Virus record (IMG/VR): IMGVR_UViG_2908959467_000003
Location: 1-50,755 of that record
DNA: 50,755 bases
Source of the DNA: a virus
Lineage: Duplodnaviria; Heunggongvirae; Uroviricota; Caudoviricetes
Strand: one strand, 5' to 3'
Below are positions 3,317-37,207 of this stretch, piece by piece. The stretch's first letter is position 1. Each line of letters starts with the position of its first letter. The notes below the pieces were generated by a model. It was not told where the DNA came from and did no database searches. It worked only from the letters and a program-made list of their open reading frames with translations. A program made the translations under genes and the position numbers.

Positions 3317-5473
3317 TTACAGCGTTGGGAAGTTTGTTGATAATGGTACTATTGCATATTCAAGTTTTGTTGGCGGATTATTTGCAGCGCTGTATGTTGA
3401 AAGAGCCTCAAGCACAATATACCCACTCCCGTTGTACCCTGCTTTGAAGCAACTTTGCAGGTTTGCTATGGATGTGTCTCCTGGATTTAACCGCTGATCA
3501 ATGGGTGATTTAAGGTCAGTTGCATCTGCCCTGTCCGTTGCGTCATGCGCACCGGAAGACATGATATAAGTAGCATAATTATTTTTTACACCTCCAGTCA
3601 CTTTTATGTGGAGAAGGTAAAGAGTGCGATCAGATGTAGAACCAGTCAATATCTGTTTATCAAGAGTAATTCGTACCTTTGAGCCATCAGATAACACAGG
3701 TAAAGACTTGCTTAACATTGCTACGCCATTAACAGTATTATCATAACCATTTCCGATATAGTTACCTGAACCTACAAAAGCTGAGTTCATTCGCCAGATA
3801 TCTTCTGCCGTAAATAACCCTGACGTAATGAAGTTACCTGTCCATACGTTTCTGTTTCTTTCTGGTCTTGCATTAAGCACCATTCCAACACCCCCGGCCA
3901 TGAAGTTGCCAGATATAACTGCTCCTGACATATCGGTAGTGTTGATGCATTGGAGTCTTAGGTCTTTGTTAACGCCAGGATCAAGAACCATTTGCATGGT
4001 ATTGCTGTTGATACTAATTCCGGCACACCACATGCCATTAAAACCGTTGTTATTGTTGTTTAACGCCTGTGAAGCGATGAAATTAAATATCCTCTGTTCT
4101 GAAGGATTTGTAGCACCTTTATAGTAGAAAACATTATTAGATATGCTAACAAGTGAGGTGCGCAAGAATATCGCAAAGTCATTTAACGGGTTTTCTTCAA
4201 AATGAAATACGTTGTTCGATATAGAAGATCTGCCACCTAATCCGACGCGAGTGCTGCTATCAAATTGCAATGACATCATCTTAATAGCAGTGTTAACAAA
4301 ACGGTTTGATGTTAAAGATACTTCAAGGCCGCCGGTAAAAGTATCAAATTCACATGCGCATTCCGTATTCCTGTTGAAGAAAAGATTGCCGTTAACATTC
4401 CCACCTACGGTAGCGCCACCAATTTTACCTAAGTCAGAGTTAGCTCCACTCTGCATAAAAACATCAAAGGTGTTATTCGTTACATGGAACATTGACTTGC
4501 GAGGCGTTCCAATGTCGACTGATGCAGTCGTGTTGCCAAGAATCATCAGATATGGATATACCTCACCCTGTTCACCTGACATTCCTGCATCAGAGATATA
4601 CTGATCTGTGTTGTCATCAGTCTTGCAGTAGTTATTATCAACTGAGATATGTACGCTGGTTGGGTCCTGACAGTTAACCATGATGTAGCCAACACCGCAG
4701 TTAAAGCATTGCATATCTTTTATCACCACTCGCGTTGGCAAATTCGCCAGCCCATCAGGGTAATCATTGAAAATTACCTGAGGACGCTGGGTGTGGTATG
4801 CATTTGCGGTGAACTTACCGCCGATAATCTCTACTGATTTTGCGCCAAGCGGATGGAAAATATAATCAATGCCATTGAAGGTAAATTCTCCAGTAGAAGC
4901 ATCGATAATGATGTCTCCTGGGATGGTGACGGGGGCCGTTACATCGTACACACCTGATGCTACAACTCTCGTTTTGTTTGCAACCGCATAATTTACAGCT
5001 GCCTGTAATTTTTCTGACGCATTACTTCCGGGGAATACCTCGGGGACAACCCATTTGATGGCATCCTGTACCGTGCCATATGGCATAATCCCAACAAGAC
5101 CAGCGCCGTCTTGATTAGAAAGCCTAATCTCAAATTGATCAGGGTCGTACTTCAGCACATTAGGGAAATAGAACTGCTGTGATCCATATGCATCGTACAC
5201 AGACATAGAATGACCTTGCACAGTTACAAACTTGGCAATCTGTCCGTTATATACCGGATATCCAGCAGCATTAATGATGATTGGTTGCGAAACAGGAACG
5301 TGAGAGCCATCTTCGTTCTCTACATAAACCTGAATCTGGTTTTCTGGATTTACGGGGTCCGTGTCAATTTTACCGATATAAATTTTGCCATTGGCAACCG
5401 CTTTAAAAGAACGCGCCATAGTGAAAAGTTGCGAAGGCATCGATACGATCACATTGGCTGTAATGTCTGTCAT
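3317..5473 (-). CDS. Tailspike protein (718 aa), P22 gp9-type head-binding domain with divergent receptor-binding domain
   Basis: N-terminus MTDITANVIVSMPSQLFTMARSFKAVANGKIYIGKIDTDPVNP.. matches the recalled P22 tailspike head-binding domain; remainder is G/N-rich beta-helix-like and unlike P22. Confidence 0.85.
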   Translation of the reverse strand: MTDITANVIVSMPSQLFTMARSFKAVANGKIYIGKIDTDPVNPENQIQVYVENEDGSHVPVSQPIIINAAGYPVYNGQIAKFVTVQGHSMSVYDAYGSQQFYFPNVLKYDPDQFEIRLSNQDGAGLVGIMPYGTVQDAIKWVVPEVFPGSNASEKLQAAVNYAVANKTRVVASGVYDVTAPVTIPGDIIIDASTGEFTFNGIDYIFHPLGAKSVEIIGGKFTANAYHTQRPQVIFNDYPDGLANLPTRVVIKDMQCFNCGVGYIMVNCQDPTSVHISVDNNYCKTDDNTDQYISDAGMSGEQGEVYPYLMILGNTTASVDIGTPRKSMFHVTNNTFDVFMQSGANSDLGKIGGATVGGNVNGNLFFNRNTECACEFDTFTGGLEVSLTSNRFVNTAIKMMSLQFDSSTRVGLGGRSSISNNVFHFEENPLNDFAIFLRTSLVSISNNVFYYKGATNPSEQRIFNFIASQALNNNNNGFNGMWCAGISINSNTMQMVLDPGVNKDLRLQCINTTDMSGAVISGNFMAGGVGMVLNARPERNRNVWTGNFITSGLFTAEDIWRMNSAFVGSGNYIGNGYDNTVNGVAMLSKSLPVLSDGSKVRITLDKQILTGSTSDRTLYLLHIKVTGGVKNNYATYIMSSGAHDATDRADATDLKSPIDQRLNPGDTSIANLQSCFKAGYNGSGYIVLEALSTYSAANNPPTKLEYAIVPLSTNFPTL

Positions 5474-33242: not shown

Positions 33243-33542
33243 ATGACAGTAGTCATTACATATCTGGCTGACGATAACGCCAGAAATCGCCGCAGAGCAC
33301 GCAGACAGGCTCAACGTGAACAGGCAATGCAAGAGCAGCGACTGGCGCGAAAAATTGAGCTAAAGCTCTCTGGTTGCGTCAGAGCAGATAAAGCAGCATC
33401 ACTCGGAAGCCTTCGCTGCAAGAAGGCAGAAGAAGTCGAGCGTAAACAGAACCGTATTTACTACCGCAAGCCACGCAGTGAAATGGGTGTGACTTGTGTT
33501 GGTCGCCAGAAAATGAAATTAGGCAGCAAACCACTTATTTGA
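33243..33542 (+). CDS. N: N-like antiterminator (99 aa)
   Basis: Arginine-rich motif NARNRRRARRQAQ; C-terminus ..RIYYRKPRSEMGVTCVGRQKMKLGSKPLI parallels lambda N. Confidence 0.8.
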   Translation: MTVVITYLADDNARNRRRARRQAQREQAMQEQRLARKIELKLSGCVRADKAASLGSLRCKKAEEVERKQNRIYYRKPRSEMGVTCVGRQKMKLGSKPLI

Positions 33543-33550
33543 GGTGATAT

Positions 33551-33874
33551 ATGGAAGCATTAGTAGTAGAGCGAAGCGAGGATGGCTACTGGACGCACCC
33601 AGAATACGCCAACCTGTTTGGGGATAGAGAGGTAATTTCAGCTGATGAGTTCAGATCTTTCTGCAAGCAGCATGGCATTGAATCATCAATTGTTGAAATG
33701 GAAAACGACAACAATCAAACGGTAATTGACTCGTATTTTGAAGATGGGAATCCAAACATCAGTGGATGGGAGCCAAGCATGCCAGATGGAGAAGGATGGT
33801 TTGTTGGTTCGATTCACGATACAGAAGACGGTCCGATCTGCGTTTGGTTCAGGAATGTAGATAAGGCCGCATAG
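33551..33874 (+). CDS. Hypothetical acidic protein (107 aa)
   Basis: First gene after N; pI clearly acidic; no recognised motif. Confidence 0.45.
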   Translation: MEALVVERSEDGYWTHPEYANLFGDREVISADEFRSFCKQHGIESSIVEMENDNNQTVIDSYFEDGNPNISGWEPSMPDGEGWFVGSIHDTEDGPICVWFRNVDKAA

Positions 33875-33890
33875 TCGGCCTTTATTTTTG
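33864..33890 (+). terminator. Rho-independent terminator (tL1-like)
   Basis: AGGCCG-CATAGT-CGGCCT followed by TTATTTTTG. Confidence 0.55.
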
Positions 33891-33911: not shown

Positions 33912-34046
33912 ATGAACGCAGTTGAATTTACAAAATGGATGGCAGAGCAAGATATCACAGGATCCGACGAAAAGGCTGTGTACTACATGGCTCTGCTATG
34001 GATTCACAAAGCAAAAGAGGCTGCAAATGCTCTTGGAGGTGAGTGA
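33912..34046 (+). CDS. Small hypothetical protein (44 aa)
   Basis: ATG with GAGGTG RBS; stop overlaps next start (TGATG). Confidence 0.3.
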   Translation: MNAVEFTKWMAEQDITGSDEKAVYYMALLWIHKAKEAANALGGE

Positions 34047-34246
34047 TGTGCGAGTTTTATGAAGCAGATATCAAACGCCCAGAAATGGCAAGTGATGCAA
34101 CATTACGTGATTACTTCGCGGCAAAGGCTATGCAAGCAATGATTAGCAATCCATCGATTATCGATAATGATTCTGATGGAGCTGTTAATTATGCAGCAAG
34201 CGCTGCATATAAGTTTGCAGACGCAATGCTCAAAGCTCGCGAATAA
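34046..34246 (+). CDS. Hypothetical protein (66 aa)
   Basis: ATG 34046 preceded by GGAGGTGA. Confidence 0.35.
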   Translation: MCEFYEADIKRPEMASDATLRDYFAAKAMQAMISNPSIIDNDSDGAVNYAASAAYKFADAMLKARE

Positions 34247-34341
34247 GCACTGTGTATTCATTCCAACGAGTGAATACACGGAGCAATGTCGCTCGTAACT
34301 AAACAGGAGCCGACTTGTTCTGATTATTGGAAATCTTCTTT

Positions 34342-34368
34342 GCCCTCCAGTGTGAGGGCAATTTTTTT
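34342..34368 (+). terminator. Rho-independent terminator within the PL operon
   Basis: GCCCTC-CAGTGT-GAGGGC followed by AATTTTTTT; preceded by a second 9-bp-stem hairpin at 34252..34279. Confidence 0.5.
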
Positions 34369-34380
34369 GATGGAGGATAT

Positions 34381-35349
34381 ATGAGTGAAGTAACAGATTT
34401 AGTTGTTATTGAAAAATCAAATGCAATGACTGTATTTCAGTCTGCCGACCAGATTGAAGAAATCCTTCAAAAGGTTGAACGTGAAGTTATGTCCTTTGTG
34501 CCTGATATCACCACGGCAAAGGGCAGAAAGGAGATCGCTTCTCTGGCGTATAAAGTTGCGCAGACGAAAACATATCTCGATGGTCTTGGCAAAGACCTTG
34601 TTGCTGAACTGAAGGAAATTCCAAAGCTAATTGATGCCAACCGCAAGACAGTGCGCGATCGCCTTGATGAACTGAAAGCCAAGGCGCGCCAGCCTCTTAC
34701 TGATTATGAGGAAGAACAGGCGCTGATTAAAGCCGAAGAAGAAGCTAAGGCAGCAGCTGAAGCTCTCGCAAAGCAAATTGAGTCTGACCATGAAATAGCG
34801 ATTTTGATGGATCGCGAATTTGACCGCCAAAGAGAAGAGGCAAGACTCAAAGCGGAGCAGGAAAAGCGAGAGCATGAAGAACGCTTAAAAAGAGAAGCTG
34901 AAGAGAAAGCCAGAGCAGAAGCCGAAGCAAAGGCAAAAGCCGAAATTGAAGCAGCAGCAAGGCGAGAAGCAGAAGCTAAGGCCGCAGCGGAACGTGCAGA
35001 GCGTGAACGCATTGAAGCCGAGCAACGAGCACAGCGCGAAGCAAAAGAGGCGGCGGAACGAGCTGAAAGAGAAAAGCATGCGGCAATTGAAGCAGAACGC
35101 AGAAAAGCACAGGAGGAGGCTGAACGAATCCGTCGCGAGGCTGAAGCAAAAGAGCAAGCCAGAATAGCAGAAGAAAAAAGAATCAAGGACGAAGAAGAGC
35201 GTAGAGCAAAAGATAAAGCTCACCGGAAAGAAGTAAATAACAAAATACTTGCTGACCTTATCAAGGTTGGTGCATCAGAAGATGTTGCTAAAAATATCAT
35301 AACAGCCATCGTAAAAGGCGAAGTATTCGCAACAAAAATAACCTACTAA
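34381..35349 (+). CDS. Charged coiled-coil protein (322 aa), unknown function
   Basis: ATG 34381 with GGAGGA RBS; central approximately 150 aa of A/E/K/R repeats; globular ends. Confidence 0.5.
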   Translation: MSEVTDLVVIEKSNAMTVFQSADQIEEILQKVEREVMSFVPDITTAKGRKEIASLAYKVAQTKTYLDGLGKDLVAELKEIPKLIDANRKTVRDRLDELKAKARQPLTDYEEEQALIKAEEEAKAAAEALAKQIESDHEIAILMDREFDRQREEARLKAEQEKREHEERLKREAEEKARAEAEAKAKAEIEAAARREAEAKAAAERAERERIEAEQRAQREAKEAAERAEREKHAAIEAERRKAQEEAERIRREAEAKEQARIAEEKRIKDEEERRAKDKAHRKEVNNKILADLIKVGASEDVAKNIITAIVKGEVFATKITY

Positions 35350-35373: not shown

Positions 35374-35505
35374 ATGATTTACGCAATCGCGGGAGGCGCT
35401 CGCATGGGTGCCTTCCAACTAAATGAATCTTTACTTGAGCGAATCACCCGTAAATTACGTGACGGATGGAAAAGAGTTGAGGTCTTATTATGCGCAATGA
35501 AATAG
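35374..35505 (+). CDS. Small hypothetical protein (43 aa)
   Basis: ATG with AAGGAA RBS; early-left region. Confidence 0.3.
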   Translation: MIYAIAGGARMGAFQLNESLLERITRKLRDGWKRVEVLLCAMK

Positions 35506-35642
35506 CCATCAATCACCAGATGCTTCGTGCTGCACAGAACAAAGCAGTAATAGCCAGATTTATTGGTGATTCAAAAATGTGGCTTGAAGCAAATAAAGCG
35601 ATGAAATCAGCTATCAACCTTCCGTGGTATCGCAGGAAATGA
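35490..35642 (+). CDS. Small hypothetical protein (50 aa)
   Basis: Overlapping ORF in a different frame. Confidence 0.25.
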   Translation: MRNEIAINHQMLRAAQNKAVIARFIGDSKMWLEANKAMKSAINLPWYRRK

Positions 35643-35809: not shown

Positions 35810-35898
35810 AGGTGTTCGCGTATTTTTAAATGCGGCAAAGACTGAAGTATTAAATCAGCGTTATTTCCTTGGGCCGTGTCCATTCTGAGAACAATCAT

Positions 35899-36504
35899 AT
35901 GAGCAAAGAATTTTACGCAAGACTGGCAGCTATTCAGGAGAATCTGAACGCGCCAAAGAATCAGTACAACTCATTCGGCAAATATAAATACAGAAGCTGC
36001 GAAGACATTCTTGAAGGCGTTAAGCCGTTACTGAATGGCCTGTTTTTATCAATCAGCGATGAAGTTGTGTTGATTGGTGATCGGTATTACGTGAAAGCCA
36101 CGGCAACTATTACTGATGGCGAAAACAGTCATACAGCAACCGCTCTTGCACGAGAGGAAGAAAGCAAGAAAGGAATGGATTCTGCACAAGTTACGGGAGC
36201 TACAAGCTCTTATGCACGCAAGTATTGCCTCAATGGTTTGTTCGGCATTGATGATGCGAAAGATGCAGATACAGACGAGCATAAACATCAGCAGAACGCA
36301 GCAGCAAAGCAATCAAAACCATCACCTACACCTGAACAGGTTCTAAAAGCATTCACTGACGCAGCAATGCAGAAAAACACCGTGGAAGAGCTTAAACAGG
36401 CGTTCGCCAAAGCGTGGAAGATGCTCGAAGGCACACCGGAGCAGCACAAAGCGCAGGACGTTTACAACATCAGACGAGACGAATTAGAAGGAGCGGCTGC
36501 TTAA
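35899..36504 (+). CDS. erf: Erf single-strand annealing recombinase (201 aa)
   Basis: MSKEFYARLAAIQENLNAPKNQYNSFGKYKYRSCEDILEGVKPLL.. matches recalled P22 Erf; start at internal ATG. Confidence 0.85.
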   Translation: MSKEFYARLAAIQENLNAPKNQYNSFGKYKYRSCEDILEGVKPLLNGLFLSISDEVVLIGDRYYVKATATITDGENSHTATALAREEESKKGMDSAQVTGATSSYARKYCLNGLFGIDDAKDADTDEHKHQQNAAAKQSKPSPTPEQVLKAFTDAAMQKNTVEELKQAFAKAWKMLEGTPEQHKAQDVYNIRRDELEGAAA

Positions 36505-36887
36505 TGGCACATTCGATTACTGTAAGGCTAAACAAGCCCGCAAGAGAGTTTCAGGCCGGGGAAAATATCGGATTCAACATCCGTGCTGGCGTTCAGTATT
36601 ACGATCGCCAGACAAAAAAGAAAGAATGGACAAACTACAGCGCCGTTGTATTTGCCAAGCCGGGAGCGCAAGCGGATTACTACCGTAGTGTTCTTGTTGA
36701 AGGTGGCATTGTAGAAATTACCGGAGAAAACATCAGGGTTGATGTTTATCAGGGGCAAAATGGTCAATCAATCACTCTTGAATTACTGAATGCAAAGATT
36801 GGATTTGCAGCTTCAGGAAATGGCTCGCAGCAGCAAAGTAGTAACCAGCAGAACACTCCTGTATACGACGATTCCATCCCATTCTGA
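36504..36887 (+). CDS. SSB-like single-stranded DNA-binding protein (127 aa)
   Basis: OB-fold-like pattern and SSB-type acidic tail ..VYDDSIPF; start overlaps erf stop (TAATG). Confidence 0.65.
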   Translation: MAHSITVRLNKPAREFQAGENIGFNIRAGVQYYDRQTKKKEWTNYSAVVFAKPGAQADYYRSVLVEGGIVEITGENIRVDVYQGQNGQSITLELLNAKIGFAASGNGSQQQSSNQQNTPVYDDSIPF

Positions 36888-36910: not shown

Positions 36911-37207
36911 ATGCCAGCGCCTCTGCATGGTGCGGATGACCCGCGCCGCTGTTCCGGCAATTCCGTATCGGAGGTGCTGGATAAATTCAGGAAAAACTAC
37001 GACCGGATAATGTCGCTACCGCAGGAAACGAAAGAGGAAAAGGAATTTCGCCATTGTATATGGCTTGCAGAGAAAGAAGAACGCGAGCGAATTTACCAGA
37101 CATCAATCCGACCATTCCGCAAAGCCACATATACCCACTTCCCTGAATATATCGACCCACGCCTGCGTAATTACTTCTCACGCTATGGCGCTATCAGTAA
37201 TGACTGA
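36911..37207 (+). CDS. Hypothetical protein (98 aa)
   Basis: Early-left ORF, no motif recognised. Confidence 0.4.

Follow-up and report, generated by a model that had tools for sequence, protein, structure and literature searches.

The gene and its position within the early-left operon

The window analysed here is the whole 50,755-nucleotide stretch of the Caudoviricetes virus record IMGVR_UViG_2908959467_000003 (IMG/VR), and the element in question is a plus-strand gene at 34381-35349 which encodes a protein of 322 amino acids. Judged by homology, this protein is a member of the phi80 Agt/Mog-Sf6 gp33 family, the gene being the orthologue of Sf6 gene 33 and a member of phrog_1376. The frame opens with an ATG at 34381 and closes with a TAA at 35347-35349, and a strong Shine-Dalgarno sequence, GGAGGA (34372-34377, plus strand), lies 3 nucleotides 5' of the start codon. 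Considering that all homologues in the alignment of relatives share the N-terminus MSE(V/T)TDL, the ATG at 34381 is the correct start and an upstream TTG at 34327 is not. Frame, Shine-Dalgarno sequence and homologue starts thus confirm the open reading frame (ORF) proposed in the initial annotation, which had been made from the sequence alone. The cI-like gene, the N-like gene (33243-33542) and the 322-residue gene are all on the plus strand, and the position of the last downstream of the N-like gene confirms that it belongs to the early-left (pL) operon.

Two hairpins or terminators had been noted in front of the gene. Both hairpins are significant, but only the one closer to the gene is terminator-like. 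It is formed by an 8-bp G+C-rich stem at 34340-34361 and a run of seven T at 34362-34368 (whole site 34340-34368, plus strand), has a folding energy of -13.2 kcal/mol (z -3.3), is more stable than all 200 shuffles, and corresponds to the Sf6 site annotated as "terminator, homology to phage lambda tL2A" 5' of gene 33. Taking into account that a terminator of the tL2A type precedes the gene, transcription into it should depend on N antitermination, and since this terminator stands 13 nucleotides 5' of the start codon the protein is probably made only after N antitermination begins. The other is a stable 14-bp hairpin at 34250-34281 (plus strand; -18.8 kcal/mol, z -6.1; 0/200 shuffles equally stable), placed right after the stop codon of the ORF at 34043-34246. 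As it has no T-run, it does not qualify as a classic intrinsic terminator and may instead be an RNA processing or stability element. A further terminator-like hairpin with a T-run was seen at 33863-33882, at the end of a 107-residue ORF (33551-33874), which makes three hairpins in all between the N-like gene and the 322-residue gene.

The next gene downstream is a cIII homologue (35374-35505; PF02061, E 4e-15), which is followed by a kil homologue (35490-35642; PF06301, E 1.7e-20), both on the plus strand, as are the three genes of the recombination module beyond them. The initial annotation had the gene followed by Erf; erf does lie downstream, by about 520 nucleotides, but cIII, kil and two small ORFs come between. 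The erf gene (35869-36504, start codon uncertain) encodes the single-strand annealing protein of the module and was called by reference to Sf6 gene 28, which is Erf-like, and from the clusters gathered with the window Erf as seed, whose representatives match PF04404. The ssb gene (36504-36887, the ORF as listed beginning at 36414) corresponds to Sf6 gene 27 and its product ends in the tail ...YDDSIPF; the equivalent ssb ORF of contig JAFADF010000066.1, which also carries a 99%-identical Agt-family gene, matches PF00436 at 1.7e-38. The erf-ssb module is closed by abc2 (36911-37207; PF11043, E 5e-60), coding for a P22-type anti-RecBCD protein, the sole recognisable host-nuclease modifier in the module.

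Architecture of the protein

The protein is built of three parts, two conserved ends around a charged centre, and this arrangement, already proposed in the initial annotation, is borne out by the conservation of both ends across homologues. The conserved N-terminal domain (residues 1-112; 34381-34716) comprises an "LVVIE" segment, two short helices, an invariant loop VPDxxTxKGR and a helix at residues 46-112, and was modelled by AlphaFold2 with a predicted local distance difference test score (pLDDT) of 86. Along residues 46-112 conservation oscillates with a 3.6-residue period, a regularity reached by 0/2000 shuffles, and one face of the helix (R49, K63, G70, K78, D85, R88, P105, and E110) is invariant, as would be expected of a binding surface. 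It is followed by a variable linker (residues 113-149; 34717-34827), which holds a semi-conserved "DHE-A-LM--FDR" motif and is the site of insertions in relatives. In many distant relatives a segment "h-h-D-x-S-W-E-E-F" is conserved near alignment position 150, where the window protein has "LMDREFDR"; this suggests that in part of the family the N-terminal conserved region reaches approximately residue 150.

At the other end, a small C-terminal domain of about 45 residues (residues 281-322; 35221-35346) carries the motif "HRKxVNxxxxxxLxxxGxSExxAKxIxxAIxKGxhxxxxIxY" and a conserved terminal tyrosine; across 113 sequences, H281 is kept in 88% and Y322 in 90%. Between the two ends lies the core of the charged helix (residues 150-280; 34828-35220), variable in length and approximately 20 nm long if wholly helical. 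AlphaFold2, run with a 38-sequence alignment, gave a single unbroken helix from residue 81 to residue 295 with pLDDT values of 90-95.

This model and the composition of the region confirm the A/E/K/R-rich helical segment described in the initial annotation. Residues 113-280 contain 27% E, 26% A, 15.5% R, and 11% K, and in the core the charged residues reach 61%, with 27% Ala and just 6% LIVMFWY. The description of the protein as a coiled coil was not borne out. In the best register, hydrophobic occupancy of the a and d positions was just 0.12-0.25 (28-residue windows of the core), so that no heptad pattern was found, and no 3.5-residue hydrophobic periodicity was detected in the core, the observed power being reached by 37% of shuffles. 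On both grounds a canonical heptad coiled coil is ruled out. What is ordered in the core is instead the spacing of its charges: 52 opposite-charge i,i+4 pairs were counted, against 23.9 +/- 3.7 expected from composition-preserving shuffles (z 7.6), and 3 like-charge i,i+4 pairs against 23.3 expected.

An excess of opposite-charge i,i+4 pairs is the signature of ER/K single alpha-helices, which elsewhere act as stiff spacers that set the distance and the effective concentration between the domains at their ends. The core is therefore predicted to be a helix, monomeric or within an oligomer, whose charges are arranged as in ER/K single alpha-helices. It resembles the domains of this kind in myosin VI, myosin X, and caldesmon in its richness in E, K, and R, in its few hydrophobic residues and in the i,i+4 pairing, and differs from them in being Ala-rich (27%), phage-encoded and variable in length. 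Alanine and hydrophobic positions of residues 150-280 (34828-35220) also showed a 3.67-residue, hendecad-like periodicity that was reached by 0.6% of shuffles, this being one among six tests. A possible alanine stripe of this kind could permit antiparallel pairing of the core.

The length of the helix varies even among close relatives. Among nearly identical E. coli alleles, of 245-333 amino acids, stretches of 11-77 residues of the charged helix are deleted or duplicated in frame, and the probable cause lies in the imperfect GAAGC-rich repeats of the DNA, through slippage or through recombination between them. Sequence and length of the helix drift but its composition stays the same, which is what one expects of a spacer.

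Relatives and gene neighbourhoods

The gene is already known, common and long sequenced, and in this sense the finding is not new. At the DNA level it is 95-99% identical to more than 300 records of lambdoid, P22-like and Stx phages, of which Sf6 is the best annotated. Its orthologue there, gene 33, has approximately 98% nucleotide identity and is flanked in the same way, with the tL2A-like terminator 5' and cIII downstream, and the Sf6 record describes it as "gene 33, similar to phage D3 Orf53" (AAQ12223). With Orf53 of Pseudomonas phage D3 the N-terminal domain is common (55% identity), and in D3-type relatives an Erf-type gene comes directly next, unlike in the window. Of 5426 complete E. 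coli genomes, 508 (about 9%) carried the N-terminal allele in intact form and at 95% identity or more.

The relative in phage phi80 (Lula) was first picked up by tblastn of phage genomes. Its Agt protein (PHI80_40, AFV29176.1) is also 322 amino acids long and is 50% identical to the window protein over 322/322 residues (BLASTP, E 1e-63); it has the same N-terminal domain, charged helix and C-terminal domain, and its gene likewise lies in the pL operon, 5' of recombination genes. The two loci differ in what follows, which is gamL-recT-exo directly downstream in phi80 and cIII-kil-erf-ssb-abc2 in the window. According to the phi80 GenBank record, agt is an "anti-toxin for Gam" (note "Mog (modifier of Gam)"), and gamL, which begins 8 nucleotides after agt and precedes recT and exo, is a "host RecBCD/SbcCD enzymes inhibitor; toxic without Mog". 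The 93-residue GamL (4977-5255 of the phi80 stretch retrieved) matched no Pfam family, not even lambda Gam. Text searches of the literature on gamL, agt and Gam toxicity found no other description. Suppression of GamL toxicity is thus an annotated activity of the phi80 protein and is not literally transferable to the window, which is without GamL. The initial annotation had called the function unknown; this holds in that the molecular role is poorly known, but the protein has a clear homologue in phi80 Agt, annotated as a Gam antitoxin or modifier.

Despite this full-length phi80 Agt/Mog homologue and the Sf6 orthologue, no curated family was matched. Nothing significant came from scans against Pfam, NCBIfam, and PADLOC, whether made with the full sequence, with the first 121 or 160 residues or with the C-terminal 54 residues, and 0 of 38 diverse relatives had a Pfam match. 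Searches of the PDB with the single sequence and with profiles of the whole protein, the N-terminal domain and the C-terminal domain returned merely low-complexity or insignificant helix-hairpin matches. The match to phrog_1376 is full-length (E 1.2e-109), and PHROGs classes it as of unknown function. An exhaustive phmmer search with residues 1-121 gave 4940 clusters at 50% identity, and for 3409 of these the E value was 1e-10 or lower. For all its thousands of clusters and its sharply conserved N-terminal domain, the family is still without a Pfam or NCBIfam model. The domain is always N-terminal, in proteins of approximately 250-400 amino acids. The C-terminal motif ...GxIxxVxIxY, and with it the layout of N-terminal domain, charged helix and C-terminal domain, was found in 115 of 150 representatives among the matches listed. 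The middle region of the family is 52-255 residues long, charged, Ala-rich and poor in Pro and Gly, and is conserved neither in sequence nor in length. The family is nearly absent from plasmids, with matches in 25 of 72,556 plasmid records, mostly phage-sized non-mobilisable replicons, and is essentially restricted to phages.

The gene neighbourhood of the family was examined in 75 of 80 loci, which were retrieved from contigs of one genome per species. Among the first four co-directional downstream ORFs, annealing proteins were recognised as ERF in 25 loci, RecT in 19, Rad52 in 6 and Sak4-type AAA_24 in 6, and the same span held a YqaJ exonuclease in 27 loci, a DUF3799 nuclease in 7, an SSB in 21 and a lambda-type Gam in 1. 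By local clustering with Pfam-checked representatives, an annealing protein lies no more than 6 ORFs away in 55 of the 75 loci. Most loci without a recognised annealing protein have an exonuclease, which points to a homologous-recombination (Rec) module whose annealing protein is unrecognised. In 43 loci the next ORF begins within 25 nucleotides of the stop codon, and it is Erf-type in 11, RecT in 5 and GamL-like in 7; such close spacing suggests coupled expression. The linkage spans Enterobacterales, Pseudomonas, Vibrio, and beta-proteobacteria, and involves four unrelated families of annealing proteins. In several loci from Enterobacter and Escherichia, GamL-like ORFs were seen 8 nucleotides past the gene of the Agt family. 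A neighbour of the GamL type characterises the pair in phi80 and not the family at large, and as GamL-like genes are rare in the loci and none is in the window, a literal "Gam antitoxin" is unlikely to be the general function.

Possible roles of the Agt/gp33 family

Considering the conserved linkage and the build of the protein, we tentatively favour, at somewhat short of an even chance, the reading that it is an accessory or adaptor protein which tunes the dealings of the phage with host DNA-end nucleases and with recombination; the mechanism and the partners that follow are ones that we infer. The Agt/gp33 family would be a promoter-proximal accessory gene of phage Rec modules, transcribed in the window from pL together with cIII, kil, erf, ssb, and abc2. 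The two conserved ends would be held some 20-30 nm apart by a stiff ER/K-type helix that is free to vary in length. One partner may be bound by the invariant face of the N-terminal helix and another by the C-terminal domain with its final tyrosine, and the adaptor would thereby tune those phage proteins that target the DNA-end nucleases of the host and recombination. The phi80 relative, annotated to neutralise GamL toxicity, would be one instance of such a role, and Abc2/RecBCD or Erf/SSB are candidate partners in the window.

Several observations weigh against this adaptor role. The sole functional statement for the family is the phi80 GenBank annotation, and a GamL-like gene was found in only about 10 of the 75 loci and Abc2 in 3; in the window, a six-frame translation searched with a GamL profile yielded no GamL-like gene. 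That genes lie in company within one long operon does not prove a common function, and cIII and kil separate the gene from erf. A survey of lambdoid Rec modules from 2025 discusses GamL, leaves agt unmentioned and does not count the gene as a member of the module. The fold searches gave no informative match, and in the AlphaFold2 monomer models no contact was seen between the N-terminal and C-terminal ends.

The chief interest of the protein is that it is a widespread, unmodelled companion of phage recombination modules, from a family that is named and barely characterised. It occupies a near-constant place at the head of Rec modules with four types of annealing protein, the place that the 2025 survey passes over. 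If the protein tunes inhibitors of the Gam/Abc2 type or annealing proteins, this would be relevant for recombineering, in which Gam toxicity is a practical limit, and co-expression of an Agt-type partner might then ease that toxicity.

A bolder form of the adaptor reading, which we regard as rather doubtful, would make Agt/gp33 a fifth component, general but not yet listed, of the Rec modules of Proteobacteria phages, be they of the Erf, RecT, Rad52 or Sak4 type. It would serve as an ER/K tether that couples the annealing protein or nuclease inhibitor to RecBCD, SbcCD, SSB or the replisome, and it might be the counterpart of the DUF1351/Gp157/Mu-Gam slot of Firmicutes phages. In those phages, DUF1351 (PF07083), Sipho_Gp157, DUF2483, and Mu-Gam-like genes take the position 5' of erf, sak4 or recT, and analogous functions have been proposed for them (PMC8093625). 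As in the Agt family, the gene in this slot lies just 5' of the annealing protein and SSB, for example in gp48-sak4-ssb of Oenococcus phage phi9805, whose gp48 is a true DUF1351 protein; TP901-1 and Enterococcus phage vB_Efm_LG62 were uninformative as further examples. The likeness to DUF1351 is an analogy of position only and not homology: hhalign gave a probability below 1% with the N-terminal domain, C-terminal domain and full-length profiles, the DUF1351 profile being thin (4 sequences) so that a very remote link could escape it, and neither the protein nor the 38 relatives had a Pfam match. DUF1351 homology was accordingly rejected.

It is unlikely, if a little less far behind the adaptor reading than the other rivals, that only the operon neighbourhood is shared with recombination genes and that the real role lies in host takeover or counter-defence, for instance as a long-helix decoy or inhibitor of an SMC/Rad50-like nuclease or of another defence protein. 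Early-left operons are rich in host-directed genes, and ral, cIII, kil, and abc2 are in the same operon in the window and in Sf6; in addition, no recombination-related fold or motif was detected, the helix varies greatly in length among near-identical phages, as fast-evolving host-interaction genes do, and the 2025 survey leaves the gene out of the module. A host-directed role does not account for the linkage to annealing and exonuclease genes across taxa and across four families of annealing proteins, and the 43 of 75 loci with the next gene within 25 nucleotides are hard to ascribe to chance in mosaic genomes. PADLOC, for its part, yielded one insignificant match, to LmuB (E 0.034).

An improbable alternative is a self-associating rod, in which two helices would pair antiparallel through the alanine stripe and place the N-terminal domain of each subunit beside the C-terminal domain of its partner, as a dimeric, KfrA-like bridge between DNA or proteins. 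The 3.67-residue periodicity of alanine and hydrophobic positions (0.6% of shuffles) would fit such a rod, but it is only marginal after correction for the six tests. Conserved beta-prone segments at both extreme ends (LVVIE and h-x-I-x-Y) and the free variation of helix length are likewise compatible with an antiparallel homodimer, whereas the charges are patterned as in single alpha-helices and no match to Pfam KfrA_N or to another DNA-binding family was obtained.

Still less probable is that the family is strictly the cognate antitoxin or chaperone of a Gam-type inhibitor, and that the window gene is a functionless remnant brought into an Erf-Abc2 phage by mosaic recombination. This reading takes the phi80 annotations "anti-toxin for Gam" and "gamL: toxic without Mog" at their word and is in line with the GamL-like ORF 8 nucleotides past the stop codon in 7 loci. 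However, 65 of the 75 loci and the window are without a GamL-like gene, while the allele is kept intact and at least 95% identical in the 508 of 5426 E. coli genomes and in more than 300 phage records, and the N-terminal domain is strongly constrained in 4940 clusters; conservation without the supposed Gam partner argues against a remnant.

A TolA-like cell-envelope protein, the name used by most database records, can be practically discounted: the A/E/K-rich helical centre does resemble, in composition, domain II of E. coli TolA of the Tol-Pal system, whose long alpha-helical middle is of the same kind, but the window protein fails every defining test, having no hydrophobic segment or N-terminal anchor (top 19-residue Kyte-Doolittle mean 1.03, at residue 293), no match of the protein or of its C-terminal 54 residues to PF06519 (hit by E. 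coli TolA at 2e-38), no matching NCBIfam TolA model, a BLASTP similarity to E. coli TolA limited to 58 columns of charged low-complexity sequence (E 0.22), and a context in a phage pL operon instead of tol-pal. The protein is a cytoplasmic one of the phage, and the name "TolA" that databases give it is mistaken and ought not to spread further. Annotation across the family is in disorder: homologues in phage records (PhiPLPE, phiARM81mr, Plectonema phage Lbo240-yong2, HF4s, and Vibrio phages) have been called tail-fibre protein, integrase, ribosome recycling factor, antitoxin, TolA and "coil containing protein", names that bear no relation to one another.

Some matches appear under hosts that deserve caution. 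The 3.9-kb contig JAFADF010000066.1, from a metagenome-assembled genome labelled "Actinomycetes bacterium", has an Agt-family copy 99% identical to the window gene, and this identity means that it is almost certainly contamination of the bin by an enterobacterial phage; matches in Chryseobacterium, Coriobacteriia, and Woesearchaeota assemblies merit equal suspicion. Within the gene itself, two ORFs run on the minus strand, at 34704-35186 (160 residues) and 34885-35223 (112 residues); neither looks like a gene, and both seem to be by-products of a repetitive coding sequence rich in GAA, GCA and AAG.

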